In this document: in pieces, positions 3,055 through 51,747 of the stretch
How positions within the stretch are numbered: position 1 is the first letter of the stretch
Layout: each line of letters opens with the position of its first letter
DNA from: Saprospiraceae bacterium
Lineage (GTDB): Bacteria > Bacteroidota > Bacteroidia > Chitinophagales > Saprospiraceae
Reading direction: 5' to 3'
Assembly (NCBI GenBank): GCA_043764555.1
Contig: JAYUKJ010000441.1
Coordinates: 1 to 51,747 of the forward strand
DNA length: 51,747 bases
Position numbers and translations under genes: made by a program
The notes under the pieces: generated by a model
The model's input: the letters and a program-made list of their open reading frames with translations, nothing else
Told to the model about the DNA's origin: nothing
Database searches by the model: none

Positions 3055-3954
3055 TTATATTTTCTCCGCAATTCTTAATTTTGCCGACCTTGAACGTGGA
3101 TTCACCCGCGTTTCTTCCGCCGTTGGTTCAATTGGTTTTTTAGTAATCACTTTAAACGGGCGCGTGATATTGCCGTAGAAGTCCGTTTCTAAAGCGCCAT
3201 CAAAATTGCCCGATTTCATAAAATTTTTCACCAAACGGTCTTCAATTGAGTGAAAAGTAATGACCGAAAGGCGTCCGCCGGGCTTCAAAACGGCGAGCGA
3301 TTCTTTCAAAAAATCCTTCAAAGCGCCAATTTCATCGTTCACTTCCATCCGCAAAGCCTGAAAAACTTGCGACCGATAGCGCATTTTTTCGCCCATACTG
3401 AGGGGGTCCATAATTGCCAACAAATCATTGATATTTTTAAAGCGTTTGCCACTGCGGGCCTGCACAATTGCCTGTGCGAGAGTGCGTGAGTTGCGCACTT
3501 CGCCGTATTCGCTGAGGATGCGTTGCAGTTCCTCGGCGGGTTCTTTGTTGAGAATATCGGCGGCCGTTTTGCCCGCACTTTGATTCATCCGCATATCGAG
3601 TGCCGCATCGAAACGGTAAGAAAAACCGCGCTTGGCGTCGTCGAGTTGGTGCGAAGACACGCCTAAATCGGCCAAAATGCCGTCAACTGCGCGGACACCT
3701 TCAAGCCTTAGCAAGCGTTTTATGTCTCTAAAATTATGATTTACGAAGTGAAAACGCGGTTCGTCGGTCGGTAGATTGCGTCGGGCGTCGGCGTCTTGGT
3801 CGAAGCCGTAGAGTTTGCTATCGGCATCTAATTGGTTGAGAATCAAGCGACTGTGGCCGCCGCCGCCAAAAGTGGCATCGACGTAAACGCCAAAGGGTCG
3901 CAGGCTTAACGCCTCGACCGCTTCATTGAGTAAAACTGTTATATGATAATTCAT
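3055..3954 (-). CDS. rsmH: 16S rRNA (cytosine1402-N4)-methyltransferase RsmH (MraW)
   Basis: Full-length similarity to the RsmH family (VDATFGGGGHS SAM motif, ADLGVSSHQLD). Located downstream of mraZ. Confidence 0.95.
   Translation of the reverse strand: MNYHITVLLNEAVEALSLRPFGVYVDATFGGGGHSRLILNQLDADSKLYGFDQDADARRNLPTDEPRFHFVNHNFRDIKRLLRLEGVRAVDGILADLGVSSHQLDDAKRGFSYRFDAALDMRMNQSAGKTAADILNKEPAEELQRILSEYGEVRNSRTLAQAIVQARSGKRFKNINDLLAIMDPLSMGEKMRYRSQVFQALRMEVNDEIGALKDFLKESLAVLKPGGRLSVITFHSIEDRLVKNFMKSGNFDGALETDFYGNITRPFKVITKKPIEPTAEETRVNPRSRSAKLRIAEKI
3395..3409 (-). repeat. Dispersed motif copy inside rsmH coding sequence
   Basis: ATACTGAGGGGGTCC on the + strand. It is read in frame on the minus strand as ..MDPLSMG.. 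Confidence 0.8.
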
Positions 3955-4104
3955 CAGACGAGCGATTCTTTATGTTCCAAATTCTTTTGACCTAAAACTT
4001 TTTTGCAAAAGTCAACAATCAAAAGAACTTGGAACTAAGAAACGAAAAATAATTGTAAGAAATTTTTAAGTGTTTCACCGTGTGAGTGGTGCCGCTAAAT
4101 CGTA

Positions 4105-4240
4105 AGTGTAAGAGAGAACAATTTGTGTGTGTTGTAAAAAAAGAAAATTAGAGTGTAACAGAGCGTAAGGTGTGTGTGTAAAACTGAAAATGTTGTGTGT
4201 GTGTAAGACAAAAAAAACTAATGGTGTGTGTGTAAAAAAT
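4105..4240. repeat. Dispersed (GT)4-5-TAA blocks in the mraZ-rsmH spacer
   Basis: TGTGTGTGTTGTAA (~4124), GGTGTGTGTGTAAAA (~4169), TGTGTGTGTGTAAG (~4194), GTGTGTGTGTAAAA (~4224), plus shorter GTGTAA copies (~4106, ~4152). Confidence 0.85.
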
Positions 4241-4312
4241 TTTGGTTGTAGAATTTTTTGACTGTTGCTTAATCATAATTTATAATTCATAAATCATCAT
4301 TCAAAGAAATAG

Positions 4313-5172: not shown

Positions 5173-5823
5173 GGACAGTAACGGGGCAAAGTGTTTTTAA
5201 GTAGTAATTCCTAAATAAACGCTGTTATAATATTTTTAAAGCATTGAATTTCAATGACTTGCGTAACCAATAACAAATAACTATTAACCAATAACTACTT
5301 ATGTGTGAATTTATCTTTAAAGGCATAAAAAAAGAGGCAGCGCCACGCACCACCTCCAGCCCTAACCAAATAAAACCAAATTATAAATTTATTTCTAAAA
5401 TGAAATGTCGTGATTGAATAGTGCTTTGTGTTTACATTGTGTTGGGTGCGATAAGATTAATTGATTCTTGTTGAAGACAACGGGTCAAAGATAAGAGTAA
5501 ACTTAGTTTTTAAACTATCCTTTGTGTTTTTTAAACACGAAAGCAATTTCAATGTGCTAAAATCTCAGTAATTCTGCTCGCTTTTGCGAAAGTATGGGGT
5601 TGTTTTAGGCGTTCAAACCTTTGTTAGCAACGTATCTATTTGAAGATTTTAAAATAAAAATAGGTTAATATTTTTTAATTGGATTTTTATTTTGCTAAAG
5701 ATGAGATTCAAAGTTTTATATTTCGTTTCAAAAAAACGTTATTCAATTAGAAAAACTTGCCGCCATTTTGGAAAAAAACGCAACCTTCGCCCCTCAATAA
5801 TTCATGTCTAAAATCAATACAGT

Positions 5824-7224
5824 ATGAAAATCAACATCATCGCGCTTTGCGTCGCAACAATTGCTTTTTTAGGACCCCTCAGTATAAACGCTCAAAATGC
5901 GCCCGTCAAGGACGAAGACGCGCTTTTTATCCGTAAAATTTACGATGTCGCCTTGACTGAAAGCCGCGCTTATCCGTGGTTGTCAACGATGTGTACCGAA
6001 ATTGGCGGTCGTTTGAGTGGTTCCGACGGTGCGGCAAAAGCCGTGGAATGGACTAAGAAAATGCTCGATTCAAGCGGTTTTACGACCCGTTTGCAGCCGT
6101 GTTTGGTGACAAATTGGAAGCGCGGGGAGAAGGAAATTGTCAAAATTAAATCGAAAAAAGGCGATGTGAATTTGCGTTGCCTTGCCATCGGAAATTCGGT
6201 CGGAACGGGCAAAAAAGGCGTGGAAGCGGAGATAATTGAGGTAAAATCGCTCGACGAAGTAGATAATTTAGGCGAAAAAGTGAAAGGCAAAATCGTCTTT
6301 TACAACCGCCCGATGGATAAAAAACAAATCAATACGTTTGCCGCTTACGGTGGTGCGGGCGATCAACGGCGGGCGGGTGCTTCGCGGGCGGCGAAATACG
6401 GTGCTGTTGCCGTTTTGGTACGCTCGCTTTCGACCGAATTAGACGACCGTCCGCATACGGGTTCTTTGGCATATGACGAAAAATATCCGAAAATTGCGGC
6501 GGTTTGCCTCTCCACAAATGACGCCGAAAAGCTCTCAAAAGCGATTTATACTGAGGGGTCCTCTTTGAAAGCGTTTGTCAGAACGACGTGTGAAATGTTG
6601 CCCGATGCACCAAGTTTTAACGTGATTGGCGAGATAAAAGGCTCGGAATTTCCGAATGAAATCATCGTCGTTGGCGGTCATTTGGACAGTTGGGACGTGG
6701 CTCAAGGCGCGCACGACGATGGTGCGGGTTGTGTTCAAAGTATGGATGTTTTGAATTTGATGAAGCAAATGGGTTACAAGCCCAAGCGGACAATTCGCTG
6801 CGTTTTGTTTATGAATGAAGAAAACGGCATGAAAGGCGGCAATAAATACGCGGAAGAAGCGGCAAAATCGACTGAAAAGCACATTTTTGCCATCGAATCC
6901 GACGCGGGCGGTTTCACGCCGCGCGGCATTTCGTTTGAAGCGGACCCCTCAGTATTTGTCGAAAAATTTAAGAAAGTTGGCGCATGGGAAGACTTGCTAA
7001 AACCCTACGGCATCGAATTGAAAAAGGGCAGCAGTGGCGCTGATATTGGACCGATGAAACCGCAAAAATTCTTACTCGGTGGCTTAAATCCCGACTCGCA
7101 ACGCTACTTCGATTTTCACCACACGGAGTTCGATAAAATTGAATACGTCAATCGCCGTGAATTGGAATTAGGCGCTGGTGCAATGGCGTCTTTGGTCTAT
7201 TTAATCGACAAATATGGACTGTGA
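5824..7224 (+). CDS. Secreted M28-family zinc aminopeptidase
   Basis: Signal peptide MKINIIALCVATIAFLGPLSINAQ. M28 metal-ligand motifs GGHLDSWD, GAHDDGAG, FMNEENG. PA-like insert. Confidence 0.88.
   Translation: MKINIIALCVATIAFLGPLSINAQNAPVKDEDALFIRKIYDVALTESRAYPWLSTMCTEIGGRLSGSDGAAKAVEWTKKMLDSSGFTTRLQPCLVTNWKRGEKEIVKIKSKKGDVNLRCLAIGNSVGTGKKGVEAEIIEVKSLDEVDNLGEKVKGKIVFYNRPMDKKQINTFAAYGGAGDQRRAGASRAAKYGAVAVLVRSLSTELDDRPHTGSLAYDEKYPKIAAVCLSTNDAEKLSKAIYTEGSSLKAFVRTTCEMLPDAPSFNVIGEIKGSEFPNEIIVVGGHLDSWDVAQGAHDDGAGCVQSMDVLNLMKQMGYKPKRTIRCVLFMNEENGMKGGNKYAEEAAKSTEKHIFAIESDAGGFTPRGISFEADPSVFVEKFKKVGAWEDLLKPYGIELKKGSSGADIGPMKPQKFLLGGLNPDSQRYFDFHHTEFDKIEYVNRRELELGAGAMASLVYLIDKYGL
5872..5888 (+). repeat. 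Dispersed motif, exact 17-mer, inside the M28 signal-peptide codons
   Basis: GGACCCCTCAGTATAAA, translated as GPLSIN just before the AQ cleavage region. Confidence 0.9.
6545..6561 (-). repeat. Dispersed motif, exact 17-mer (reverse), inside the M28 CDS
   Basis: TTTATACTGAGGGGTCC, translated as IYTEGS. Confidence 0.9.
6942..6955 (+). repeat. Dispersed motif copy inside the M28 CDS
   Basis: GGACCCCTCAGTAT, translated as ADPSVF. The TAA of the full motif is replaced by TAT TTG. Confidence 0.85.
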
Positions 7225-7237
7225 TTTTTTTCAATTA

Positions 7238-7293
7238 AAAAGGCTCAATTAGGGTTTCAAATTGCAGCAACTTGAAACCCTAATTGAGCCTTT
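7238..7293 (+). terminator. Long hairpin downstream of the M28 gene
   Basis: 22-23-bp perfect arms AAAGGCTCAATTAGGGTTTCAA / TTGAAACCCTAATTGAGCCTTT with an 11-nt loop. Confidence 0.6.
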
Positions 7294-7320
7294 AAAAATT
7301 AGAAATTAAGCATTAAAAAA

Positions 7321-7355
7321 GCCGCCTAAACCATTGTGTTTAGGCGGCTTTTTTA
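7321..7355 (+). terminator. Rho-independent terminator
   Basis: GCCGCCTAAAC / GTTTAGGCGGC stem flanked by an A-run and a T-run. Confidence 0.75.
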
Positions 7356-7374
7356 TTTTTTTTTCAGTATAAAA

Positions 7375-7535
7375 CTGTATTAAAAAAACGTGTTAAAACT
7401 GCATTAAAAAACGTGTTAAAACTGCATTAAAAACGTGTTAAAACTGTATTAAAAAACGTGTTAAAACTGTATTAAAAAACGTATTAAAACTGTATTAAAA
7501 AACGTATTAAAACTGTATTAGAAAACGTGTTAAAA
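7375..7535. repeat. Minisatellite, ~23-bp unit CTG(C/T)ATTAAAAAACGT(G/A)TTAAAA x7
   Basis: Seven head-to-tail units (22-24 bp) with a few point differences. Located in a convergent intergenic spacer. Confidence 0.9.
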
Positions 7536-7690
7536 CAATAGTTTTTACAATTAATTAATTTGCTTAATTTTTAAATTATTTAAACAAATTAACCACGCAT
7601 TTTAATCATTATTTTTTTATTAAAAAAGCGCGTTATTACTAATATAACAATTTAATCTCATTATGATTAGTGATAAAATAGCAATTTTTT

Positions 7691-7910
7691 AATTGATTTT
7701 AAACTGCTTAAAATCGTTATTTTTCAATTGATTTAAACTGCTTAAAAACGTTATTTTTTTAATTGATTTTAACGCTGCTGAAACCGTTATTTTTTAATTG
7801 ATTTTAACTGCTTAAAACTGCTTTGTTTAATCGCTTGAAATTGCCTTTAGAAGCGTTGTTTTTTTAGTTGATTTGAACTGCTTAGAATCGCTTTTTTTTA
7901 ATTGATAATT
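7691..7910. repeat. Minisatellite, ~36-38-bp unit AATTGATTTTAAACTGCTTAAAATCGTTATTTTTT, ~6.5 progressively diverged copies
   Basis: Read directly. The unit shares AAACTGC(A)TTAAAA(N)CGT with the 23-bp array. The array ends 6 nt from the stop codon of the 7917-8837 gene. Confidence 0.85.
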
Positions 7911-7916
7911 TACGTT

Positions 7917-8837
7917 TTAATTCGGTTCAACATTAATGATTAACGGCTTAATATCCTTACATTCTTTAGTTGATTTTTTAGCATAAAAAGTCGTTGTTTG
8001 AGTCGGGGCAACGAGCAAATTCGTCATTGGATTTTTGTCATTATTGGCGTCCGACAGTGAGGCATAAAAAGCGATGGGATTGCCCATTTCGCGCGTCAAA
8101 TTATTGTGGTCGAAGGCAAAATGTTCGATAAAGACGGCTTCACCTTTGGCAATTGTTCGCGCCGCCGTAACGACGTTTGGCGCTGAAATGGAATCCAACG
8201 AAATCGGCGCTGAAATCGTTTTCGTCGTGTCTGTAACGACTTGACAATAATAGCTACCCGCCGTTTTTATCGTGTAATTTTGCTTTGTTGCGCCCGCAAT
8301 CGGCTCTCCGTCCCGAAACCATTGGTATTTAGCGTTGATTTGTTGCGCACCGACCATCAAATTCAGCTCGTTGCTGCACATGGTTATCGGCACATTTATC
8401 GTCGCGTTGTCCGAATCATCCTCCGATTTTAGGCTGTTATTGGGCGTCGAATCCGCATCAGGCTCGTTCATCGCCGCAATTTCCGAGTAGCAATAGACGA
8501 CGCCTTCCGTTTTTATTTCAATCGTTAAAGTCAAGCTAACGGAGTCCGTCGTGGCGGGAATTGTGCCGATATACCACATTCCTGCGGTCGGGTCGTAGGC
8601 ATTTGGCGCGTTGTTGGAGACGTAAATTGCGCCATTCGGAATCGGCACATTGACCTTTACACCCGTGATTTTAGTGCGTTTTTGATTGAAAATAGTGATT
8701 TTTATCGCCATTTTATCGGTTCGCTTCGCCGTTTTTTTTGGCGTTGATAGGCGCAGCGAAAGGTCATTTTGAGCAAAAATACTGAGGGGTCCTATGAGGA
8801 AGGCAAGTAATATAAATGAGCTATTTTTTTTAAACAT
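7917..8837 (-). CDS. Secreted hypothetical protein (beta-rich, possible DUF11-like and Ig-like modules)
   Basis: Signal peptide MFKKNSSFILLAFLIGPLSIFAQ and an uninterrupted 306-aa ORF. The domain guess rests on ...VKVNVPIPNGAIYVSN...LTLTIEIK and QWFRDGEPIAGATKQNYTIKTAGSYYCQV. Confidence 0.6.
   Translation of the reverse strand: MFKKNSSFILLAFLIGPLSIFAQNDLSLRLSTPKKTAKRTDKMAIKITIFNQKRTKITGVKVNVPIPNGAIYVSNNAPNAYDPTAGMWYIGTIPATTDSVSLTLTIEIKTEGVVYCYSEIAAMNEPDADSTPNNSLKSEDDSDNATINVPITMCSNELNLMVGAQQINAKYQWFRDGEPIAGATKQNYTIKTAGSYYCQVVTDTTKTISAPISLDSISAPNVVTAARTIAKGEAVFIEHFAFDHNNLTREMGNPIAFYASLSDANNDKNPMTNLLVAPTQTTTFYAKKSTKECKDIKPLIINVEPN
8779..8792 (-). repeat. Dispersed motif copy inside signal-peptide codons
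   Basis: ATACTGAGGGGTCC on the + strand, read on the minus strand as GPLSI just before FAQ. Confidence 0.85.
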
Positions 8838-9871: not shown

Positions 9872-9905
9872 TTTATTTTGAATTTAAAATTAAAAATTAA
9901 CCCGT

Positions 9906-9947
9906 CATAACTCATAACTCATAACTCATAACTCATAACTCATAACT
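9906..9947. repeat. Heptamer microsatellite (CATAACT)x6
   Basis: Six perfect units. The last nt overlaps the stop codon of the upstream hydrolase gene, and the array lies ~85-125 nt upstream of the next gene start. Confidence 0.95.
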
Positions 9948-10828
9948 CACGCTTTTTTCTTACTGAATTCGATGCTGCTTTTTTCTTTGTCAATCACGAT
10001 TTTATCCTTCGTAAATATCTGGCTTAACGTCTCGTGATAGGACTCAAAATTGTGCATATCGTTGTGTCCAGCGCCAATAACGGCGTGCAATCGGGTGATT
10101 TTATCGTTAATTTTGGACAATTTGATGCTTGAGTTGAGTGGTATTAACTTGTCATTTGTTCCGTGAATAATGTGAATTGGACACTTAACGTATTTAATCC
10201 ATTTATAGGTCGGAATCGGAAATTTCAGCAGCCACGACATCGGCATAAAAGGCATATAACGCCCCGTCGTTTTGCTCAAACTGTAATACGGCGCGTCGAG
10301 AATCAGCATTCGCGGATTGTTCGTTGACGCCAATTTTGTTGCAAACCCCGAACCAAGCGAGCGACCGTACAAAACGATGTGTTTTTCGGACACATTTTCC
10401 TTGATTTTGTTGTACACCAATTGCAAATCATTGATAATTTCTTCTTGCGTCCGAATGCCCGTACTTTTGCCAAAGCCGCGATAATCGACCATAATCACGT
10501 CATAATTATAGCGCAAAAAATCAATCGCAAACTTGCCCCAACCCTTAATACTTCGGCTGTTGCCTTTCAAATAAAAGACCATGCCGATGGGTTTTTCGGA
10601 TTTGAAATGAATGCCCGACAGGACAACCCCGGGTTTGATGTCCATTTTATATTCATCGAAATTCAAATTTTCGTAATTAAATTGAAACTCCGACGACAGC
10701 TTTTCAGGTCGAAAAAGGATAACATCTTGCAAAAAATACACTAATACGCTGATAACAACGTAAATCGCCAACACCACCAAGAGTATTGTGCCAACGTGAT
10801 TGCGCGCCCATTCGACTATATTATTCAT
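9947..10828 (-). CDS. Alpha/beta hydrolase, paralog of 9002-9823
   Basis: GRSLGSG, HGTNDKLIP, GAGHND, N-terminal TM. Start trimmed to MNNIVEWARNH (ATG at 10828). The longer ORF extension is Arg-rich, crosses a motif copy and looks non-coding. Confidence 0.8.
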   Translation of the reverse strand: MNNIVEWARNHVGTILLVVLAIYVVISVLVYFLQDVILFRPEKLSSEFQFNYENLNFDEYKMDIKPGVVLSGIHFKSEKPIGMVFYLKGNSRSIKGWGKFAIDFLRYNYDVIMVDYRGFGKSTGIRTQEEIINDLQLVYNKIKENVSEKHIVLYGRSLGSGFATKLASTNNPRMLILDAPYYSLSKTTGRYMPFMPMSWLLKFPIPTYKWIKYVKCPIHIIHGTNDKLIPLNSSIKLSKINDKITRLHAVIGAGHNDMHNFESYHETLSQIFTKDKIVIDKEKSSIEFSKKKA

Positions 10829-11119: not shown

Positions 11120-14100
11120 TTATAAAGGTTTTTGAACATCATTAATTACTTTTTCAATACTTTCAACAACTTCTAACCAAGCTGTATCTCTATCGGAAAA
11201 AGTACTAACAGCAACACCTTTTGCGGGTAGTGCTTGTTGCTTAGCAAAATCCAATTTAGTCCATTGACATGGTTTTAAAATAATGGGAATAACCCGTGCT
11301 TTTCCATTTTTACGTTGTTCTTCGGCAAGCGGAATTTCATGATTCCAAATATAATCGGTATTAATAAAATTGGCACTTACTAAAAAAAGGATAATATCTG
11401 CTTCTTTTAACTTTGCTTTAATAGTATCATCCCATAATTCACCACCAATAATATGCCTATCATCCCAATTTGACACAATATTGCGCCTTCTTAAAGGCGA
11501 AAGATGGGTTATTAATTCATCTTTGAGTTCTCTGTCTTTTTTAGAGTAAGAGATAAATATGGATAATGGTTTATTACGTCTCAACATATCTCCTTTTACT
11601 TCAATCTTCTCGACATTAATTGTCGTTATTACCTTGTCATCTACGATAAAATCCAAAAGTGTTAAAATACTTTTATTCACTTTAGCCTTTTGCCTCAACG
11701 CTTTTGAAAAGGATACATTATCAAAATGCTGCTTTATTTTAAGGGTAGATATTTCTGAATTTAGTAGAGCTATATTCTTTTTAAGTGACTCCTGATTATT
11801 TTCGTCTGCCCATTGTGAAACAATATTCACTGCTTCTATGGCTTTATCATTTCCAATTAAAGCACGAACTTTTACTTTGAGTTCATCGAGTGTCATTAAT
11901 ACTTCCATTTTTTGTTTTTGAGAAATGCCTTCAATGTCTAAATTGTACAATTTGGAGAATGATAAGTTTGAATTAACGTTTAAAAGATCTTTAAAATCTT
12001 CGACAAAGAAACGCTTACCGTCGTATGTGAAATTAGTTTCATCTTTATATTTTTCTAATTCTGTTAAAGGTATAAATGTTTTTCCATCAGTAGAAACGGT
12101 AATTTTAGAAGAAGTGTGGTGGTTATTTTTAAATTCATTACGAATAGTATCTAACCATAATTTACGTTTTTTTCCCTTTACTTCTATACGAATAGTTTTA
12201 TTTTTTTCATTGGCTACAATTAAAGCATCAACCTCTTGCCCTTCCAACCAAATACCATAACGCCACATTTGATTAACTTTAGAAAGACTACGAGCACTGA
12301 TAATGAAACTCTGAATAATACCATAGTAGAACCACGTATATTCAAGTTGTAAAAAAATACTATCTTTATTGTCTTTAAAAATACGTAAAACTGGAGGAGG
12401 AGCAGTTTCTGACATTAAAGAAGGGGCAACCCATATTTTTTTATCAAAATCTCCTTGACCAGACTCTGACTCAAAACAAATTCCACATTGCTGCATATAT
12501 TGAATAAAATATTGCTTTTCTTCCAAAGTATAATCCATCCATTTTTCATTCAATTCATTTAAAGAAAAACGACCATCTCCTTTGCTAACGATTTTGTAGA
12601 AAATACTATTTCTATCAAAAAGTGTGTAAACTGCGTCAATCAACCATTCTTGGTCTAATATAATTTGTCCATTAAAAAGCTTTGCATCATAGAAAAAGAC
12701 ACCTGTTTCATGCAAATAATCTAAAAGAGTTAATTTAGAATCGTTATCCAAGTCGTAATGATTACAAAAAGCAAAAAAAACTTCAAGACCTAATTGTTTT
12801 AAACCAGAATTATCTCCTTGCTCTTTATTTTTATTATTAAGTTGTTGTAATTGGTGTATCATATGGCGCACGCTGTGCCAAGATTGAGGAATTAGTGGCT
12901 GTTCTTTTATCGTTTTTTTAGCAAAACCTACCAACTCTTCTTTCAAATAATTAATCCCACGTCCTGTTTTTGAATCAATATGAAATGAATCAAGTAGATT
13001 AAAAACCTTTTTCCACTCTTGATACTGAGGGGGTATCTCTTTTTCATTGCCTTCCTTTTCAATTTTGGATTGGACAAGAAAGATAGGTGACTTTGGATTC
13101 AATTGCTTGATATAAGATAACCAATAGACTTGATCATAATTTATAAACACGTGTTTTTCATTAGTTTCAGGGTTTATTCCAAAAGCTTCATGTTGATTAT
13201 TATTTTCTATATCCCAAACTAAAACAGTTACAGCCTCTGTTTTTAAAAATAAACGATGTGTTTCATGAAACAAATGTTGACCACCGAAATCCCAAATATT
13301 AAAAAGAATATCAGGGTCAGCTTTCCATGCTTTTAAGTAAACTGCGTGTGTTGTTTTCTGTGCCTCATCAAATTCTTCGCCTTGCAAGACACGCATTAAA
13401 CTTGTTTTACCTGCTCGACCATTGCCAACAAAAACAACTTTCAGCGTATCATTGATATGGCTTCCTTTTTTTAAGTCTTTGAAGTAATTGTAAAGATTAA
13501 AACAACAATTTTCCGAAGACTTGTCGTATATCTTTTTAGGTATATTTTTGATTGGATTACCACTTAAAAACAATATTTGCAGGTCTTTTAAATAATCAAA
13601 GATATTACTCGGAAAGTTTGTGATTTTATTGCTGTCTAATGATAGATGATTTAAATGAGGTAAGAATTTTAAAAAGGAGACATCAACTATCTTATTATAA
13701 ACCAACACCAGTCGAGTTAATTTAGTGAAATTTTTCAAAAATGAAGCATCAACAAGGTCAGTATAGCCAAGATTTAACTTAGTTAAATTTGTTAATGATA
13801 ACAAAGGAGTGAAGTCTTTAATTTTATTAACACGCAAGTCAATATCTTCTAATTGGGGAGAATCTTTTAAAAATGAAATATCTTCAATATGATTATCCCA
13901 TAAATTTAAAGTCTTTAATTCTGTTAAATATTTTAAATGGGAAAAATCTTTAAGTCTATTATCCCATAAATTTAATTTTTGTATTTTAGGCAAATGCTCA
14001 AATACAGAAATATCGCTAATTTTATTTCTGCCTAAATCTAATTCTTTTAGGTTCTTTAATGAGCCTAACCAATCAATATTCTCAATTTCATTTTGTTCCA

Positions 14101-14638
14101 AATTTAGATAAGTCAGGTTTGGTAAATCTTTTAAAAATGAAATATCTTTAATTTCATTTACACTCAAATCTAAATGGCTTAGTTGTTTTATTTTTTGCAA
14201 AAAAGAATAATCTTTTGTTTTGTGATTACCTAAAATTAACCTATATAGATTTTGTGTATTACCTAAAAAGCTATAATCCTTAATTGGGTTATACCTCAAA
14301 TCTAAGACTTCTAACTGTGGTAAATCATTTATAAAAGAATAGTCTTCAATTACACTACAACCTATGTCTAAAATTTTCAAATTTCTCAACTCTTTAAAAA
14401 AGGAAAAATCCTTAATTTGACTGTAACGAATATCTAAGTACGTTAGACTATGCAAGTTTTTTAGATTTGAGTAATCTTGAATCTTTGATTTAGACAGATT
14501 TAGTTGATTTAAATAGCGTAATTCAACAATTTCGTCAGGTATTTTTCCAAGTGTTAGTTGGGATAGATTTAGTTCTTTAGCATTGTTTTCTTTGGCATTT
14601 TTAATAAGAACAAGCGCTTTTTGATAATCAGCAGTCAT
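11120..14638 (-). CDS. LRR - Roc (Ras-like GTPase) - COR - coiled coil - TIR multidomain protein (ROCO family with C-terminal TIR)
   Basis: aa ~20-370: ~15 repeats of 22 aa (LxxLxxLDLxxNxIxDxSFL). aa ~400-560: P-loop VVFVGNGRAGKTS, WDFGGQ (DxxG), SKIE. aa 1023-1172: TIR-like SIFISYSKKDRELKDEL...ADIILFLVSANFINTDYIWNHEIPLA with the conserved Glu (E1101, nt 11336-11338). Confidence 0.85.
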   Translation of the reverse strand: MTADYQKALVLIKNAKENNAKELNLSQLTLGKIPDEIVELRYLNQLNLSKSKIQDYSNLKNLHSLTYLDIRYSQIKDFSFFKELRNLKILDIGCSVIEDYSFINDLPQLEVLDLRYNPIKDYSFLGNTQNLYRLILGNHKTKDYSFLQKIKQLSHLDLSVNEIKDISFLKDLPNLTYLNLEQNEIENIDWLGSLKNLKELDLGRNKISDISVFEHLPKIQKLNLWDNRLKDFSHLKYLTELKTLNLWDNHIEDISFLKDSPQLEDIDLRVNKIKDFTPLLSLTNLTKLNLGYTDLVDASFLKNFTKLTRLVLVYNKIVDVSFLKFLPHLNHLSLDSNKITNFPSNIFDYLKDLQILFLSGNPIKNIPKKIYDKSSENCCFNLYNYFKDLKKGSHINDTLKVVFVGNGRAGKTSLMRVLQGEEFDEAQKTTHAVYLKAWKADPDILFNIWDFGGQHLFHETHRLFLKTEAVTVLVWDIENNNQHEAFGINPETNEKHVFINYDQVYWLSYIKQLNPKSPIFLVQSKIEKEGNEKEIPPQYQEWKKVFNLLDSFHIDSKTGRGINYLKEELVGFAKKTIKEQPLIPQSWHSVRHMIHQLQQLNNKNKEQGDNSGLKQLGLEVFFAFCNHYDLDNDSKLTLLDYLHETGVFFYDAKLFNGQIILDQEWLIDAVYTLFDRNSIFYKIVSKGDGRFSLNELNEKWMDYTLEEKQYFIQYMQQCGICFESESGQGDFDKKIWVAPSLMSETAPPPVLRIFKDNKDSIFLQLEYTWFYYGIIQSFIISARSLSKVNQMWRYGIWLEGQEVDALIVANEKNKTIRIEVKGKKRKLWLDTIRNEFKNNHHTSSKITVSTDGKTFIPLTELEKYKDETNFTYDGKRFFVEDFKDLLNVNSNLSFSKLYNLDIEGISQKQKMEVLMTLDELKVKVRALIGNDKAIEAVNIVSQWADENNQESLKKNIALLNSEISTLKIKQHFDNVSFSKALRQKAKVNKSILTLLDFIVDDKVITTINVEKIEVKGDMLRRNKPLSIFISYSKKDRELKDELITHLSPLRRRNIVSNWDDRHIIGGELWDDTIKAKLKEADIILFLVSANFINTDYIWNHEIPLAEEQRKNGKARVIPIILKPCQWTKLDFAKQQALPAKGVAVSTFSDRDTAWLEVVESIEKVINDVQKPL
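13022..13035 (-). repeat. Dispersed motif copy inside the ROCO-TIR CDS
   Basis: ATACTGAGGGGGTA on the + strand, read on the minus strand as IPPQYQ. Confidence 0.8.
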
Positions 14639-14779: not shown

Positions 14780-14854
14780 TCTTTTTTCAAAAAAAGGCAA
14801 GACTTCTACGGCTTTCGCAGCCAAACGGTTGTCAAACGGCGGTAGGCATCGCTA

Positions 14855-14887
14855 AACGTCGGCGAGGTTTGAAACCTCGCCGACGTT
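14855..14887. repeat. Palindromic hairpin element (15-bp stem AACGTCGGCGAGGTT), copy 1 of 2
   Basis: Perfect 15-bp arms with a 3-nt loop. The same stem sequence recurs at 37540-37572. Confidence 0.9.
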
Positions 14888-18010: not shown

Positions 18011-18112
18011 TTATTTTTATGAAAATAAAAGTAAAATACTTTATTTTTATTAAAGTAACTTGTACATTTGTAACATTAAGTAAAAATTATTTACAATTTC
18101 AAACCGAATCTG

Positions 18113-36463: not shown

Positions 36464-36540
36464 TTGACTTAAATTTATGACAAAGTTAAGACTATTTTTG
36501 AAACAATAAAACAAAACAAAAAGTTTTTTATTGGAAAATA

Positions 36541-37539: not shown

Positions 37540-37575
37540 AACGTCGGCGAGGTTCAAAACCTCGCCGACGTTTTT
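37540..37575 (+). terminator. Terminator; copy 2 of the AACGTCGGCGAGGTT hairpin element
   Basis: Same 15-bp stem as 14855-14887, 3-nt loop, followed by T5. Lies 11 nt after the exonuclease stop. Confidence 0.85.
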
Positions 37576-40317: not shown

Positions 40318-40391
40318 TTAATGGACAATGGATAATATACAATGGATAATAACCCAAGACTGTCCATTATCCATTATCCATTATCCATTAA
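40318..40391. promoter_or_regulatory. Imperfect 74-bp palindrome built from AATGGATAAT / ATTATCCATT units, 35 nt upstream of groES
   Basis: TTAATGGACAATGGATAATATACAATGGATAAT-aacccaagac-TGTCCATTATCCATTATCCATTATCCATTAA. Confidence 0.6.
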
Positions 40392-40781: not shown

Positions 40782-42437
<1,656 letters not shown>

Positions 42438-42504: not shown

Positions 42505-42572
42505 GGACCCCTCAGTATAAATGGGTTTTTTGCTCGTTTTTGAGTGGAAATGGGCGTTTATACTGAGGGGTC
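42505..42572 (+). mobile_element. 68-bp element bounded by inverted motif copies (left flank of the 42579-42941 gene)
   Basis: GGACCCCTCAGTATAAATGGGTTTTTTGCTCGTTTTTGAGTGGAAATGGGCGTTTATACTGAGGGGTC. Its interior is the reverse complement (a few mismatches) of the interior of 43104-43171. Confidence 0.8.
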
Positions 42573-42578
42573 TTATTT

Positions 42579-43103: not shown

Positions 43104-43171
43104 GGACCCCTCTGTATAAACGCCCTTTTTCACTCAAATCGAGCAAAAAAGGGCGTTTATACTGAGGGGTC
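43104..43171 (-). mobile_element. 68-bp element, inverted copy (right flank of the 42579-42941 gene)
   Basis: GGACCCCTCTGTATAAACGCCCTTTTTCACTCAAATCGAGCAAAAAAGGGCGTTTATACTGAGGGGTC. The interior forms the ACGCCCTTTTT / AAAAAGGGCGT hairpin. Confidence 0.8.
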
Positions 43172-43201
43172 TCTCATTTTGAAACACAATCGTTTCAACG
43201 T

Positions 43202-44593
43202 TTATTCAACCGCCAAAACCTTGATTTCTACCCGACGGTTCAATTCTTCTTGGTGTTCGTTGATGGGTTCAGGATATTTCATTTGCGAATTGCCGTAGCC
43301 TTTGCTTGTGATTTGGGTTTCCGAAAAACCATTTTTAATCAAAAACTTACGAATCGTCAAAGCGCGTTTTGTGGAAATCAAAAACTCGTCTTTTGGCAAT
43401 TTTTTAGGCTCAACGCCCGGTGCATTCACGTGTCCCGCAATCTCAATTGTGATGGTGTTGTTGAGTTCCATAAAACGCAAAATTTTCGCCATTTCTGTAT
43501 CCGAAGACTTCAATAAAGTCGCTTCGTTGCCCACAAAATACAAGTTCGTAATCGTTGCCACGCTGCCGACTTTCAACGGTTGAAGGTCAACCCGTTGCGC
43601 CAAATTGGGCTTAATCACCACATCTTGCGAATTGTAGAAATAGCCTTTTGCAAACACATCCATCGTGACAATTTCGTCAAAAGAACACAACAACTTATAC
43701 GTCCCGTCTTCTTCCGTTGTCATCGAATCGACTTTGCCATTGAGGTGTTTTACGAAGATTGTGGCAGGAATACCCGCTTTTGAGTCTCTATTCTGAATCA
43801 CACCTTGCAAAAAAGGCTTGGCGTCGGGTGCAACTTTTGGTGTTTCCACAACGGCTTTTTTGGAAGATTCGCCACCATTATTTGTGAACATTTTTTCAAA
43901 TGAAGACGACTCATTAAATGGCTTTTCATCACGATTTCCTACAGTCTGAATGGAGACAACAGGCTTTTCGACAATCACTCGTTTTTCAATAATGACGGGT
44001 TTTTCGACGATTTTTTCCACCGTTTGAATCTGAATGACAGGCTTTTCGACAATCACTTGCTTTTCAACAATGACTGGTTTTTCAACGATGCGTTCAACCG
44101 TCTGAATCTGAATCACAGGCTTTTCGACAATCACTTGTTTTTCAACAATTTTGATGTTCTCAGGCGCGGGTTCATATACTTCTACGGACGCACGGCGGTT
44201 CATTTTACGCCCCGTTTCCGTGTAATTTTCCGCCAAAGGCTTGTCTTTTCCGAAAGTTGACGCCATCAAAGCGTCGGGCGAAACGCCTTTAGATATGAAA
44301 AAGTATTTTACAGCATTGGCACGTTTATCCGACAAAATATAGTTGTCTTGTTGGCTGCCGTTGCCGTCAGTGTGCGCCGTAATGCGGATTTTCAGACGGT
44401 CGTTTTGCTTGTATTTAGCAACGATTTGCTGAAGCTGATGGCTAACATCGGGTGTCAAATTAGCTTTTGAAGACTCAAAATAGATGTCCATTTTGTCGGC
44501 TAACCTAAGGTTGTCGAGGACATTTTGAGCGTAAGTGGACACCGTGAAGGTGAAGAAGAAAAGGAGTGTGAACAGTTTATCTATTTTTCTCAT
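43202..44593 (-). CDS. OmpA-family protein with two OmpA_C-like domains and an internal VEKPVI-rich repeat region
   Basis: N-terminal OmpA_C-like block (ITAHTDGNGSQQDNYILSDKRANAV...NRRASVEVY), C-terminal block (IAGHVN...STKRALTIRKFL...NRRVEIKVL), signal peptide. Confidence 0.8.
   Translation of the reverse strand: MRKIDKLFTLLFFFTFTVSTYAQNVLDNLRLADKMDIYFESSKANLTPDVSHQLQQIVAKYKQNDRLKIRITAHTDGNGSQQDNYILSDKRANAVKYFFISKGVSPDALMASTFGKDKPLAENYTETGRKMNRRASVEVYEPAPENIKIVEKQVIVEKPVIQIQTVERIVEKPVIVEKQVIVEKPVIQIQTVEKIVEKPVIIEKRVIVEKPVVSIQTVGNRDEKPFNESSSFEKMFTNNGGESSKKAVVETPKVAPDAKPFLQGVIQNRDSKAGIPATIFVKHLNGKVDSMTTEEDGTYKLLCSFDEIVTMDVFAKGYFYNSQDVVIKPNLAQRVDLQPLKVGSVATITNLYFVGNEATLLKSSDTEMAKILRFMELNNTITIEIAGHVNAPGVEPKKLPKDEFLISTKRALTIRKFLIKNGFSETQITSKGYGNSQMKYPEPINEHQEELNRRVEIKVLAVE
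43946..44160. repeat. In-frame 78-bp (26-aa) tandem repeat x~2.7 inside the OmpA-family CDS
   Basis: CTGAAT(C/G)(T/G)(G/A)A..ACAGGCTTTTCGACAATCAC recurs at ~43946, ~44024, ~44103. The protein repeat is VEKQVIVEKPVIQIQTVE(R/K)IVEKPVI. Confidence 0.85.
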
Positions 44594-45480: not shown

Positions 45481-46287
45481 TTATTTTGACACATCCGCTG
45501 CTTGTTTTTGATAGGGATGATTGGGCGTATTTTTGATTTTTTCAAACAATAAACGCGCTTTGTCGCCTTGTTTTTCGGACAGTGCCAAAGCCAAATACCA
45601 TTCTGCTTTTGGTTGCCATTCTGTGTCCCTCAACTGGCTCAATTGGGTGAGAATAGGGACGGCTTTTTCCGCTTGTTCGGTCGCCAAATAGGCATTTGCT
45701 TGAAAAAATAGGGCATCATACTGAGGGGTCCTAATTTTTTCAAAATAGACCAACGCGGCTTCATATTCGCCGTTATCGTAGAGCGAAAATGCTTTTTCAA
45801 TATCACTTTTTTGGGTATTTTCACGCACCGTCGGCTGGGCATAGTTGCGATAAGGTCTGAATGTAGCGGCATAAGTACGCTCCGTTTCTGCCGTTTTTTT
45901 CTGCCGAATAAAATACATGGTTGCGCCACAAATGCCGAGTAATAAAGTTGCCGCAATTGCCAACTGTTGCATGAAAGAAACACCCTTTGGCGCTTTAGAC
46001 CTAAGGGGTCTTTTTGAGACAAATGGCGTTTTAGTATCGATTGATTTAACCGCTGATTTAATCACTTTTCCTGCTTGCAATGTCGCTTCTTCTGCCTGCA
46101 ACAAGGTTTTTAAGTTGCCGTCGCCGAAGGCTTTTATCGCCACAACTGCTGCTTCATACCGCTTCACTTCGGCTGCAAAATCGGCATCCGAAAGGCGTTG
46201 ATTGAAGGTCATTAACTCGCTGGTTGTCAATGTGTTATCGAGTTTTTTCTCAATCAGCAATTGGTCTATTTCCGTTAGCTTGTACAT
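45481..46287 (-). CDS. Putative anti-sigma factor: N-terminal cytoplasmic domain, one TM, TPR-like outer domain
   Basis: Starts 13 nt after the ECF sigma gene. TM segment LAIAATLLLGICGATMYFI. C-terminal TPR-like helices (YDNGEYEAALVYFEKI..., ANAYLATEQAEKAVPIL). Confidence 0.55.
   Translation of the reverse strand: MYKLTEIDQLLIEKKLDNTLTTSELMTFNQRLSDADFAAEVKRYEAAVVAIKAFGDGNLKTLLQAEEATLQAGKVIKSAVKSIDTKTPFVSKRPLRSKAPKGVSFMQQLAIAATLLLGICGATMYFIRQKKTAETERTYAATFRPYRNYAQPTVRENTQKSDIEKAFSLYDNGEYEAALVYFEKIRTPQYDALFFQANAYLATEQAEKAVPILTQLSQLRDTEWQPKAEWYLALALSEKQGDKARLLFEKIKNTPNHPYQKQAADVSK
45718..45731 (-). repeat. Dispersed motif copy inside the anti-sigma CDS
   Basis: ATACTGAGGGGTCC, read on the minus strand as RTPQYD. 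Confidence 0.85.
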
Positions 46288-46300
46288 TATTTTAAATGAA

Positions 46301-47233: not shown

Positions 47234-47300
47234 ATTCCAAATTCCAGATTCCAAATTCCAGATTCCGCATTTGAAATTTGGCATCTGAAATCTGGAATTC
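47234..47300. repeat. GGAATTTGAAAT-family satellite, locus 3: direct TTCCAAATTCCAGA x2 followed by inverted ...GAAATTTGG..GAAATCTGGAATT
   Basis: Read directly. Lies in the divergent ECF-sigma / S8-peptidase intergenic region. Confidence 0.85.
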
Positions 47301-48867: not shown

Positions 48868-48918
48868 AAAAGTCGAATACAGTTTCTTAGAGATGTGTCA
48901 TAAAATTAGAACAACCGC

Positions 48919-48948
48919 AAGGGTTATTTTCATCTGAGAATAACCCTT
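48919..48948 (+). other. Hairpin between the S8 and TPR-CHAT genes
   Basis: 10-bp perfect stem AAGGGTTATT / AATAACCCTT with a 10-nt loop and no clear T-run. Confidence 0.5.
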
Positions 48949-48965
48949 AATTACTTTCTTAAAAA

Positions 48966-51747
48966 ATGCGATATTTTACTATTATTCTATTAATTATTGT
49001 CATGTCTGCTTGCTCAAATCAAAGCAGTACACTTAGTAATGATATACGCCTTGATGAGTCCATCCAAAGGCTCAGTGAACTTAGTCTTAAACAATCTAAA
49101 GACACCTTACTGCTTAATTTTGCTTTGACGGAGGCTTATCAAGTTGCTGATAAATATAAACATCGAACGCATGATTCTTTAATCGCCATAACAACACGTC
49201 TTTTAGGTAATGCTTATTTAGCTACGAAGCCTCAAATAGCGCGTTTTCATTACGAAAAAGGTTTGCGGTTTGGCACAAGGTATTTGAGCCTAAATGAAGA
49301 TATAATAACCCGTTTATATCGGAATATGGCACTAACATATTACATTAATCAAGACTACAAAACGGCATTAATCTATTATGATTCCGTTAAAATTACGAAG
49401 GATGATAGCACGGCGCAAGTCATGAAAATTAGTACTTTAATGGACGTGGCAGAATGTTACAAAAATATCAATGACTACAAATCAGCTGAAAAACTTTTTA
49501 AAGAAGCAGAGCCGTTAGCAGAAAAATGGCAGAAAAATACGTCTTTAGCCAGTTTTTATAACCAATATTCAAGTTGCCTTAGAAAATTAAAAAAGTTTCA
49601 AAATGCCCTCCAAAAGGCTCAAAAAGGCATGGTTGTCTTACAAAAAGGGGCAGTTAAGACATCTTTTTCTAAATATGATTCGCTTATTTTTGCCAATATT
49701 TTGTACAGTATGGGCTATACTTTAAATGATTCAGGTGCTTACGAGGCAGCTGAACCTTACTATATCAAAGCTATGTCCATCTATCGAAAACAAAATAATT
49801 GGGATAATTATAAAAGAGGACTTACCAATTTAGGATTCTTGTACCGCTTTAATAAAAAATTTGGAGAAGCTGAAAGCGTTTTAACCGAAGGCATTAATCT
49901 GTCGAGTCAATCGGCATTAGATGATAAAAGCATTGATTTAAAAGCCAGTTTTTACGTCAATCGAAGCGAGGTTTATTTGGAAACAAAACAATATAAAAAA
50001 GCCATTGCCGACCACGATTCAGCGATTCATTTTTTTACGCTTTACGGGAAAAAACCGTCATTAACTGCCATAATGATGCAAGCGCGACCCGTTTTGCTGT
50101 CTGTTTTAAGCGATAAAGCAAAAGCGTCTATTGCTTTAGCCGAAAATGGCTCTGATACTGAGGGGTATCAAAAAGCTTTAAAACTAACCCAACAAAGCAT
50201 ACAATTAGCCGATGATATTCGCGCCGATTATTTCTCCGATGAGGCTAAATTGACTTTGGCCAATGACATCAAACCCGCGCTGGAAAAAGCAATTTCGGTC
50301 TGTCAAAAATTGTATCAAAAGACCAACGATAAACAATATTTAGAACAAGCGTTTGGCTTTGTGGAATACAGCCGAAGCATGGTTTTATATGAAAATGCCC
50401 GACTCGACAATCAATTACCATCGAATTTAAAGGCAGAAAATGAAGCATTGAAGAAGAAGGAAGCGGCTCTGATTGCTAATAATAACGTCGAAGATTTGCA
50501 AAATTATTTGCGCTTAAAAAGGCAATTTAGAGAAAAAATAAAAGCCTTAAATCGCAATCAATTAGCCACCATTTCTGAATTGAAAACCGCCTTAATTAAA
50601 GACGATAAAACGGCGTTAATTGAGTTTTTTGTGGGCGATTCAGCCGTTTTTGTTTTTACTTTAGTCAAAAATGATTTGACATTAATCGAATTAAAAAAGC
50701 AAAAAGATTTTGATAAACAAATAGAAAATTTGCGTCAACACATTACGCAAGCCAATCCTGTACGTAATGCGGAAGTATTTGAAAAACAAGCGAAAAATCT
50801 TTACAACACGTTGTTAATCAACACTATAGCGCAATTGCCAACGACCGTCAATCAATTAATTATGGCGCCCGACGGTGTTTTAAATTATTTACCTTTTGAA
50901 ATTCTAATAAAAGAGGACCCCTCAGTATATTTGAAGAATTCCCAAAATTTTAAGGATTCCAATGGAGGAAAACCGTCAAAAGATTCATCATTCATCGTTC
51001 ATCACTCATCATTCCAAAAAGTAGATTTTTTAATTAAAAACTATCAAATTTCTTACGCTTATTCTGCCAATTTATTGTTGGAACAAAAGCGGATTAAAAC
51101 GGAATCGGCGCCCAAATTATTCGCAGGTTTTGCGGCAAAATATGAGAATAAAGACACGACTTACGCTTACGCCGACGTAAGCCGTGCCGTCCTCACGCGA
51201 GACGGGGCGTATGAGTTGAAAGGGGCAACGGAAGAAGTAAAAACCATCAGCGATTTGGTCGGCGGACAAGCCTTCGTCAACGAGTTCGCTACTGAGGAGT
51301 CCTTTAAAAAAGAAGCCAATCAGTACCGAATTTTGCACTTCGCTATGCACTCCTTGACGGACGATAAAGACCCGTCGTTAAGCAAATTGCTCTTCACGCT
51401 CACGCCAAAAGACACCACAAACGACAACGATTTGACTGCCGCCGAACTCTACGCCACGTCCTTAAAGGCCGACCTCGCCGTCCTAAGTGCTTGTAACACA
51501 GGCTTTGGTACATTAAATAAAGGGGAAGGTGTGATGAGTCTCGCTCGTGCTTTCACCTACGCGGGCGTCCCGTCAACGGTCACGAGTCTTTGGAAAGTTC
51601 CTGATAGGGAGACGCGTGAAATCATGGTGGACTTCTACAAAAACCTAAAATCAGGCATGACTAAAGACGCCGCCTTGCGCCAAGCAAAACTCACTTATTT
51701 GGAAAATACGCCTGAATCCATAGCTGCAAATCCCTATTTTTGGGCAG
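48966..51747 (+). CDS. Lipoprotein TPR-repeat / CHAT-domain (caspase-like) protein, 3'-truncated by the window edge; absent from the ORF track
   Basis: Hand translation gives MRYFTIILLIIVMSACSNQ (lipobox-like), ~8 TPR-like helical pairs, then CHAT hallmarks: LIMAPDGVLNYLPFE, ILHFAMHS (His) and ADLAVLSACNTG (Cys), SLWKV.D. No stop codon from 48966 to 51747. Confidence 0.85.
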   Translation, partial: MRYFTIILLIIVMSACSNQSSTLSNDIRLDESIQRLSELSLKQSKDTLLLNFALTEAYQVADKYKHRTHDSLIAITTRLLGNAYLATKPQIARFHYEKGLRFGTRYLSLNEDIITRLYRNMALTYYINQDYKTALIYYDSVKITKDDSTAQVMKISTLMDVAECYKNINDYKSAEKLFKEAEPLAEKWQKNTSLASFYNQYSSCLRKLKKFQNALQKAQKGMVVLQKGAVKTSFSKYDSLIFANILYSMGYTLNDSGAYEAAEPYYIKAMSIYRKQNNWDNYKRGLTNLGFLYRFNKKFGEAESVLTEGINLSSQSALDDKSIDLKASFYVNRSEVYLETKQYKKAIADHDSAIHFFTLYGKKPSLTAIMMQARPVLLSVLSDKAKASIALAENGSDTEGYQKALKLTQQSIQLADDIRADYFSDEAKLTLANDIKPALEKAISVCQKLYQKTNDKQYLEQAFGFVEYSRSMVLYENARLDNQLPSNLKAENEALKKKEAALIANNNVEDLQNYLRLKRQFREKIKALNRNQLATISELKTALIKDDKTALIEFFVGDSAVFVFTLVKNDLTLIELKKQKDFDKQIENLRQHITQANPVRNAEVFEKQAKNLYNTLLINTIAQLPTTVNQLIMAPDGVLNYLPFEILIKEDPSVYLKNSQNFKDSNGGKPSKDSSFIVHHSSFQKVDFLIKNYQISYAYSANLLLEQKRIKTESAPKLFAGFAAKYENKDTTYAYADVSRAVLTRDGAYELKGATEEVKTISDLVGGQAFVNEFATEESFKKEANQYRILHFAMHSLTDDKDPSLSKLLFTLTPKDTTNDNDLTAAELYATSLKADLAVLSACNTGFGTLNKGEGVMSLARAFTYAGVPSTVTSLWKVPDRETREIMVDFYKNLKSGMTKDAALRQAKLTYLENTPESIAANPYFWA
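50155..50166 (-). repeat. Dispersed motif copy inside the TPR-CHAT CDS
   Basis: ATACTGAGGGGT, translated as DTEGY. Confidence 0.75.
50915..50929 (+). repeat. Dispersed motif copy inside the TPR-CHAT CDS
   Basis: GGACCCCTCAGTATA, translated as EDPSVY. It opens a ~110-nt low-complexity in-frame stretch. Confidence 0.85.
51290..51302 (-). repeat. Dispersed motif copy, GGAG variant, inside the TPR-CHAT CDS
   Basis: TACTGAGGAGTCC, translated as ATEESF. Confidence 0.65.

Follow-up and report, generated by a model that had tools for sequence, protein, structure and literature searches.

In a window of 51,747 nucleotides (nt), the whole stretch of DNA analysed here, from a Saprospiraceae bacterium (Bacteroidota; GenBank assembly GCA_043764555.1, contig JAYUKJ010000441.1), a short DNA word with the consensus (A/G)GACCCCTCAGTAT, usually directly followed by AAA, recurs between and within genes. 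Judged from sequence comparison, the copies within genes are almost certainly not inserted elements. They arose by same-length nucleotide replacement at permissive sites, as copies of a lineage-specific, highly iterated word that is held at the DNA level. A model-generated note on the same DNA (the original prediction) had read them as in-frame insertions of the type of Rickettsia palindromic elements (RPEs). This is refuted, as no testable coding site shows an insertion or deletion (indel) relative to word-free orthologues. The permissive sites are signal peptides, loops, linkers and tails with native residues near GPLS, DPSV, TPQY, TEGS or ILRG. A miniature element inserting in frame would be a new way of protein remodelling, but the data show otherwise. 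That genes contain copies follows simply from the presence of the word throughout the genome, and the word is the interesting object. It clearly shows how pressure at the DNA level can override the sequence of proteins: at positions that tolerate it, the ends of signal peptides among them, one word dictates GPLS, DPSV, PQY, TEG or ILRG, and it freezes synonymous sites across species. Annotators should not take such recurrent word-encoded peptides for homology.

A search for RGACCCCTCAGTAT with at most two mismatches yields 44 matches in the window, compared to a mean of 0.02 in dinucleotide shuffles. With at most three mismatches, 52 copies are found, 27 on the plus strand and 25 on the minus strand. 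The invariant part is the 11-nt core CCCCTCAGTAT, set in a consensus of 14–17 nt, and variation is mainly located at bases 1–3 (GGAC, AGAC, GACC, TACC), with few copies deviating at position 4 (GGACTCC). The window form GGACCCCTCAGTAT is not a palindrome and the shared 14–17 nt carry no self-complementarity. Five of the six reading frames of the word are stop-free. A proportion of 73% (32 of 44) of the copies is non-coding and crowded into 23% of the sequence (2.7 per kb; p = 4e-12), while the other 12 lie in well-supported genes (0.30 per kb). Over 52 kb there is no strand bias and the GC skew shows no clear reversal. A polar motif of the Chi/KOPS type was rejected on the same strand counts, and a Chi-like role is set aside because strand bias is absent.

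Coding copies and their orthologues

Gene identities were derived from a simple gene model and Pfam. The hosts supported by Pfam are RsmH, an M28 peptidase, a DUF11/Ig protein, a ROCO-TIR protein, a LytS-type histidine kinase, an LRR/WG-repeat protein, a TPR anti-sigma-like protein and a TPR-CHAT protein. With the copies relocated, these identities bear out the claim of the original prediction that the word resides in at least nine protein-coding genes, and translation confirmed the position and peptide of each coding copy it named. In rsmH (3395–3408, minus strand), GAC CCC CTC AGT ATG is translated as DPLSM. The M28 peptidase gene contains three copies, one giving GPLSI ahead of NAQ in the signal peptide (5872–5885, plus), an antisense one giving YTEGS (6548–6561, minus) and one giving DPSV (6942–6955, plus). 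The DUF11/Ig protein also has GPLSI, ahead of FAQ, in its signal peptide (8779–8792, minus). A five-C variant, TACCCCCTCAGTAT, encodes IPPQY in the ROCO-TIR protein, where a linker joins its Roc and COR-A domains (13022–13035, minus), and a five-C variant in the LRR/WG-repeat gene gives the same peptide (30428–30441, plus). The C-terminal tail of the histidine kinase carries a one-mismatch antisense copy read as TEES (27538–27551, plus), and the last codons of the gene at 34417–35097 hold a variant copy read as MPPQYLGL before the stop codon (34429–34442, minus; MPPQY comprises residues 219–223 of 226). RTPQY is found in the anti-sigma/TPR protein (45718–45731, minus). Finally, the TPR-CHAT gene comprises an antisense copy giving DTEGY (50155–50168, minus), a copy giving DPSV where a loop of low model confidence begins in the CHAT domain (50915–50928, plus) and a two-mismatch antisense match giving ATEES (51289–51302, minus). 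Two matches were absent from the original list: the core CCCTCAGTA, antisense in a gene for a di-haem cytochrome c peroxidase (22370–22378, plus; TTEGV), and a two-mismatch antisense match in a Ham1/ITPase gene (35262–35275, plus; GTEGFGY). The latter sits on native codons, since GFGYDP is a conserved motif of the Ham1/ITPase family. Similarly, A(T/S)E at the 51289 match is native in all homologues, with no indel.

The original prediction also stressed that coding copies always use a stop-free frame and that the TAA is mutated where the DPSV frame is used. Both statements are true, but necessarily so in any intact gene, and they are uninformative. The frame usage check was run on the window and its relatives. 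All five open frames are used (TEG 36, PLS 33, ILRG 23, PSV 23 and PQY 18, with orthologous copies included), and 44% of the coding copies are antisense.

The orthologue comparison draws on loci fetched from relatives (L-numbers below), some 0.3 Mb of clade DNA in total. It covers rsmH, the three M28 sites, the DUF11 signal peptide, the histidine kinase, the tail of the 34417 gene, the anti-sigma factor and CHAT, along with FtsI and MurE in relatives, and leaves out the ROCO-TIR (13022) and LRR/WG (30428) sites. When aligned with three solved RsmH structures and with 17 orthologues from outgroups, the rsmH site shows no gap. The peptide is (D/E)P(L/V)IRG in outgroups and DPLSMG in the clade that bears the word, and those outgroups with a similar peptide encode it by other codons. 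In a 35-sequence alignment, none of the three M28 sites shows a word-sized indel. At 5872, xPLSI occupies the same column in most clade orthologues, and outgroups have unrelated hydrophobic residues of equal length. At 6942, DPSV(F) replaces D(A/E/S)SVF or similar without an indel, and at 6548, TEG stands where outgroups read xE(A/x)x; the loop around it varies by a single residue. As these sites fall among the least conserved five-residue windows (percentiles 1.7, 5.6 and 13.9 of outgroup conservation), the word has been written over positions that tolerate change and were similar beforehand to a peptide it can encode.

The other sites tell the same. The tail of the histidine kinase is a conserved part of the family (ending in FFKF) and not an addition; in the column of the 27538 copy, clade orthologues read TEG(S/A/G/V) and distant ones SDTT or SESK, without an indel. 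At 45718, the L081 orthologue of the anti-sigma factor reads KTPIPY, again without an indel, and has its own copy elsewhere in the same gene. No indel is present relative to L081–L086 at CHAT 50155, CHAT 51289, the anti-sigma factor or the DUF11 signal peptide, and the nucleotides at 8779 in the latter are identical in the L086 orthologue. C-terminal tails in the family of the 34417 gene span 0–10 residues, and the window tail lies within that range. A further comparison set clade copies in RsmH, FtsI, MurE and a fourth gene against 69 loci from outgroups. Of its 24 site alignments (which represent seven distinct sites), 23 were ungapped and none contained an insertion. The replacements seen are DPLIRG to DPLSMG, MVEAGC to MITEGC, LRTERY to LRTPQY, EDP(D/E)AI to EDPLSI and EILAGI to QILRGI. 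Alignment with orthologues from distant taxa without the word was the test that the original prediction had itself named as potentially refuting; there the residues are often similar and indels are absent, which argues against insertion.

The nucleotides of the word are conserved beyond what the encoded residues demand. In an RsmH comparison of nine species, the residue is invariant and its coding degenerate in 186 columns, of which 31 keep one codon throughout. For four- and six-fold degenerate residues, this is the case in only 6 out of 103 columns (6%). The four degenerate codons of the rsmH word (GAC CCC CTC AGT) are all invariant in the nine species and account for three of these six columns. 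With the codons of the word frozen amid drifting synonymous sites, the word is maintained as DNA. Likewise, the window, L081 and L082 share exactly GAT ACT GAG GGG TA at CHAT 50155, amid flanking synonymous sites that vary. Antisense coding copies are as well conserved as sense ones. Between the window and L081, intergenic and coding copies keep their positions at about 70–74% nucleotide identity; for example, a copy 58 nt upstream of an S8 peptidase gene has its counterpart at the matching place in L081 (region 74% identical).

Copies have also been gained or lost patchwise. At the 6548 site of M28, L086, the closest relative, matches the window in length and is 87% identical to it over the gene, yet 12 out of 15 nt differ. 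L086 shares its word-free allele with the more distant L088, and TEG is found in L087 and in orthologues still further away. This allele distribution is at odds with the overall similarity of the genes and suggests an exchange of short patches between lineages. A multi-nucleotide patch that is incongruent with relatedness favours short-patch recombination over stepwise mutation, the same argument that Treangen et al. made for the DNA uptake sequence (DUS) of Neisseria (PMC2397512).

Strong protein constraint or recent acquisition may limit the accumulation of the word. Such limits fit two genes of the window: the 1.6-kb Cpn60 (GroEL-like) gene (40797–42437) contains no copy, and the low-GC (33%) ROCO-TIR gene (11120–14638) contains a single weak variant in 3.5 kb.

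Intergenic context and dialects of the word

Nearly every intergenic region of the window contains a copy, whether the flanking genes are in tandem, convergent or divergent. In tandem regions, the orientation of the word relative to transcription is unbiased (15 same, 9 opposite; p = 0.31). Typically, an A-run is followed by the word, TAAA, a short G+C stretch (CGCC) and an A/T-run, at which a hairpin often begins. The flanking A/T tracts are phased at approximately 10 nt. Among the about 32 intergenic copies, four or five inverted doublets occur, and many single copies lie beside hairpins. Inverted-repeat analysis identified an intergenic doublet at 43104–43172 that forms a hairpin with a 31-bp stem; similar doublets are located at 42505–42573, 21092–21171 and 17899–18011. 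Two doublets share 40 nt beyond the word. The hairpins beside single copies differ in sequence, and most single copies share only 14–17 nt. Terminator-like sites are modestly enriched in the window (35 versus 24.4), a sigma-70 promoter scan showed no enrichment (45 versus 46.4), and Rfam had no match anywhere in the window.

A scan of species-representative genomes with the RsmH of the window assigns it to Saprospiraceae. The best match (91% identical) belongs to a metagenome-assembled genome (MAG) from Salar de Ascotan. The core is present at 0.6–1.2 per kb in eleven loci with an RsmH of at least 72% identity (one of them, L055, with a partial RsmH match, 79% over the aligned part) and is entirely absent from the other 69 loci. 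The same density range of the word holds across 19 clade loci. A k-mer census of all fetched loci, followed by alignment of the copies, distinguished lineage dialects, namely four flank variants and one core variant. The window itself has GGACCCCTCAGTAT(AAA) with a GGACCCC- start at 0.89 per kb. In L001, L002 and L086–L088, the core CCCCTCAGTAT is preceded by A or C (22:20) with a weakly conserved upstream flank, also at 0.89 per kb. L003, L005–L009 and L055 carry GACCCCCTCAGTAT at 0.92 per kb, with a GACCCCC- start noted for L005–L008. GGGGCCCCTCAGTATTTT occurs in L238, where the kinase is 56% identical (18 in 21 kb), and CCCCCCTCAGTA(A/T) in L239 (14 in 17.8 kb). The core variant, a T to C change, is found in the sister lineage L011 (RsmH 71%) as AAAAA..CCCCCCCCAGTATAAA (10 in 13.6 kb). 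L011 has no T-type copies, the eleven T-type rsmH loci have no C-type copies, and neither type is present in L237 or in 68 other Saprospiraceae/Chitinophagales loci. A shared architecture and shared flanks combined with a shifted core imply a co-evolving reader protein. The dialects make the identity of this protein directly testable, and for the binning of these MAGs the word provides a sharp taxonomic marker.

Outside the clade, a scan of viral contigs returned 28 contigs with one copy each and thus no phage or mobile element rich in the word. In a metagenome scan, the 14-mer was single in all of the matches listed, indistinguishable from chance in unrelated contigs. A literature search found neither the word itself nor anything relevant on repeats or competence in Saprospiraceae or Bacteroidetes, and no uptake-type signal or other highly iterated word with dialects was found described for Bacteroidota. 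The word is an undescribed, dialect-bearing and uptake-sequence-like word of this phylum.

A 34-nt perfect palindrome, AACGTCGGCGAGGTTYRAAACCTCGCCGACGTT, occurs twice (14854–14887 and 37540–37573), each time 14–26 nt from a copy, and further long palindromes without the word lie at 7227–7305 and 36603–36692. These may constitute a second repeat family. In the closest genome, L001 (4951–20692), a second family of inverted doublets, rich in G+C (GCGCTCGCTTCGCTCG ... CGAGCGAAGCGAGC), has 16 matches in 21 kb. It looks like a doublet family of repetitive extragenic palindromic sequences (REP/REPIN) and falls outside the abundant k-mers of the window.

Candidate explanations and known systems

We tentatively favour a drive by recognition plus recombination, with a DNA uptake signal as the best-fitting model, although we would stop short of calling it probable. 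A protein that co-evolves with the word would recognise it sequence-specifically in double-stranded DNA, which would explain the dialects. Uptake and recombination would prefer fragments that bear the word. Short-patch homologous replacement would thereby spread it, and it would accumulate where it is tolerated, mostly between genes beside hairpins and secondarily within genes. Our explanation taken whole, from the overwriting of genes by the word to this uptake-type mechanism, falls just below an even chance of being right. It is rather doubtful that a group of freshwater and glacier-stream Saprospiraceae uses CCCC(T/C)CAGTAT, with dialects, as an uptake-like self-recognition word that is read by a receptor and spread by recombination. 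If true, this would be the first system outside Proteobacteria of the type of DUS and the uptake signal sequence (USS), and it would have reshaped hundreds of proteins in their signal peptides, loops and tails.

The word resembles the DUS of Neisseriaceae and the USS of Pasteurellaceae in being short, non-palindromic, present at about 1 per kb and equally distributed over both strands. The extended USS has AT-rich flanks, as has the word. The coding copies lie without indels at poorly conserved positions, as Findlay and Redfield found for uptake sequences (PMC2817400), and are kept here at orthologous sites. Treangen et al. located DUS in permissive regions, attributed them to patchwise recombination instead of stepwise mutation and described inverted pairs as terminator-like hairpins (PMC2397512). 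Dialects in related lineages and absence from unrelated neighbours are a further likeness; lineage-specific DUS dialects are among the subjects treated by Frye et al. (PMC3630211). The host phylum is different (Bacteroidota), the word is longer (an 11-nt invariant core in a 14–17 nt consensus), and intergenic enrichment in the window is much stronger.

Several points weigh against an uptake signal or against the breadth of its support. The enrichment between genes (73% of the copies in 23% of the sequence) exceeds that reported for USS and DUS. Many intergenic copies are embedded in the wider semi-conserved context of A-run, word, TAAA, CGCC, A/T-run and hairpin. Together with the 40 nt shared by two doublets, this context implies that some of the intergenic instances could have been copied as parts of something longer than the word. 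No competence, uptake-machinery or receptor gene is present among the annotated genes of the window, and uptake sequences are not known outside Proteobacteria. Dialects and frozen synonymous sites are equally expected from direct selection for any DNA-binding function. Finally, the frame and site counts include orthologous copies and are not independent.

The main rival, which we consider less likely than not, is that the word is the site of an abundant chromosomal DNA-binding protein and that each copy is under direct selection, with no uptake or recombination drive. Such a protein could be a nucleoid-associated or chromosome-organising factor, or the word could be a marker of self for a repair or defence system, with a status like that of the cyanobacterial highly iterated palindrome HIP1 (GCGATCGC). 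Frozen synonymous sites, conserved orthologous positions, dialects that imply a co-evolving reader, A/T tracts at a phase of about 10 nt and a copy in nearly every intergenic region all agree with a binding site. However, a frequency of about 1 per kb within essential genes, at the cost of amino-acid changes, would be unusual for a 14-nt protein site, the incongruent patchwise gain and loss is more simply explained by recombinational spread, and the window encodes no obvious candidate protein. HIP1 is described as spreading by substitution. Like the word, it is highly iterated, present inside and outside genes and evolutionarily conserved; unlike the word, it is an 8-nt palindrome recognised by methyltransferases, whereas the word is longer and non-palindromic and has no known link to a methylase. 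According to a recent preprint, the function of HIP1 is still under debate (bioRxiv 10.64898/2026.06.24.733823).

It is improbable that the word acts in RNA, as a 3'-untranslated or terminator-associated signal or as the target of an RNA-binding factor, with the coding copies as by-products. Many intergenic copies are sense-oriented and lie 1–100 nt past a stop codon, just 5' of an A-tract, a hairpin and a T-tract, and the modest enrichment of terminator-like sites points in the same direction. Nonetheless, the 15:9 orientation is not significantly biased, copies also occur in divergent promoter regions, no Rfam family matches and the antisense 44% of the coding copies is equally conserved. 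Unbiased orientation and conserved antisense coding copies are why we set an RNA-level or terminator role aside.

Very improbable is the view of the original prediction that a small transposing element of the type of REP/REPIN, RPEs or miniature inverted-repeat transposable elements (MITEs) has the word as its conserved end, and that the coding copies are in-frame insertions or remnants. The inverted doublets with long hairpins (43104–43172, 42505–42573), the 40 nt common to two of them and the inserted repeat adjoining a copy in the CHAT gene speak for such an element. Against it, the 24 clade site alignments and all compared window sites are free of insertions, the 14-mer is neither a palindrome nor a multiple of three in length, single copies mostly share 14–17 nt beside differing hairpins, the CHAT insert and the word occur independently (see below), the window has no transposase gene and no viral contig holds more than one copy. 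RPEs measure about 100–150 bp and add residues relative to orthologues. Like them, the word is a repeat in intact genes that is translated within the protein, but it adds no residues and its shared unit is 14–17 nt instead of about 100 bp with palindromic structure; residues are added only by the heptanucleotide array in CHAT, which is unrelated to the word. REP/REPIN sequences, mobilised by REP-associated tyrosine transposases (RAYTs), share with the word its intergenic abundance, its inverted hairpin-forming doublets and its variation between lineages. In contrast to them, the unit here is not palindromic, copies share only the short word and not a whole element, and a quarter or more of the copies lie in genes (12 of 44 in the window, and genes of the division and cell wall (dcw) cluster in relatives). 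No RAYT (IS200/IS605-like) gene is present in the window. Transposition of the REP, MITE or RPE type is excluded for the coding copies and unlikely for most intergenic ones.

Chance or codon and peptide usage, with GPLS, TEG and PQY simply being common, can be dismissed for practical purposes: it suits the weak matches at 35262 and 51289 on natively conserved residues, but not the expectation of 0.02 matches per window, the conservation of exact nucleotides including synonymous positions or the different codons used by outgroups with similar peptides.

The CHAT insert and other features of the window

The original prediction described the stretch following the copy in the CHAT domain as an insertion resembling intergenic repeat DNA. 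Both parts hold. Alignment with homologues reveals a true lineage-specific, low-complexity insert (50929–51020, plus strand) of about 29 extra residues between YLPFE and ISYAYS that is absent from most of 30 homologues. Its core (50983–51014) was identified by Tandem Repeats Finder as a 7-nt repeat with 4.6 copies and 84% matches. The unit, ATTCATC, occurs 4.6-fold in the window and ten-fold in L085 and generates the seven-residue periodicity SSF(I/V)VHH; a 12-residue KDSSFxVHHSSx unit is present once in the window and twice in L081 and L085. Heptanucleotide arrays of this kind match intergenic ones in L086, L088 and the window, and parts of the L081 insert match the window arrays at 9905–9949 and 33634–33651. 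The heptamer copy number differs between relatives, with the reading frame kept in all three and no frameshifted variant seen. The insert shares with simple-sequence contingency repeats a tandem 7-nt unit in a coding region and a copy number that varies among relatives; it differs in that the array is imperfect and in frame in all three relatives.

The word was also said to open the insert as one unit, which is not borne out. L083 has neither insert nor word at the site and L082 has the word core without the insert. The inserts of L081 (about 42 residues) and L085 (about 62 residues) are longer, with a decayed word (CCCCCTTCCGTA) in the former and the word core in the latter. As the word occurs without the insert in L082 and the insert with a decayed word in L081, the two are independent. 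The insert is a separate event, in which a heptanucleotide microsatellite of a type common between genes of these genomes expanded in frame. A structure-model check agreed with a location on a loop: in the AlphaFold model, the predicted local distance difference test (pLDDT) score drops to 58–65 over DPSV and the insert (mean 87.5), indicating a flexible loop. The insert would be tolerated because it lies in this predicted disordered surface loop. In L081 (5570–8532), the TPR-CHAT orthologue is called as two genes, TPR (5570–6649) and CHAT (6688–8532), which could reflect a disruption or an assembly or frameshift difference.

Intergenic heptanucleotide arrays of the window comprise a perfect TCATAAC (6.4-fold, 9905–9949), AATTAAA (four-fold, 24533–24561), ATTTCAA (13-fold, 33551–33642), TCCATTA (four-fold, 40363–40390) and ATTCCAA (4.7-fold, 47234–47266). 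The TCCATTA array lies 36 nt before an open reading frame (ORF) at 40426, which precedes the Cpn60 gene. Several of these arrays are located 10–200 nt upstream of start codons and might vary promoter spacing. Tandem arrays with units of 13, 23, 35/70 and 15 nt also occur between genes (1–94, 7370–7536, 7674–7906 and 23589–23650, respectively). The 690-nt gap at 7225–7916 consists almost wholly of repeats, and L086 has a 520-residue ORF at the corresponding place.

Three genes resembling PDDEXK-type nucleases occur in the 52 kb, namely a YhcG/DUF1016 gene (2025–3071) and two Uma2 genes (24680–25243 and 35786–36514). Synteny around rsmH reaches only mraZ and breaks directly after rsmH, where the YhcG nuclease gene is located and relatives continue with dcw-cluster genes. 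Finally, an OmpA-family gene (43202–44593) contains in-frame 78-nt (26-residue) tandem repeats at 43959–44149, in 2.4 copies with 89% identity.

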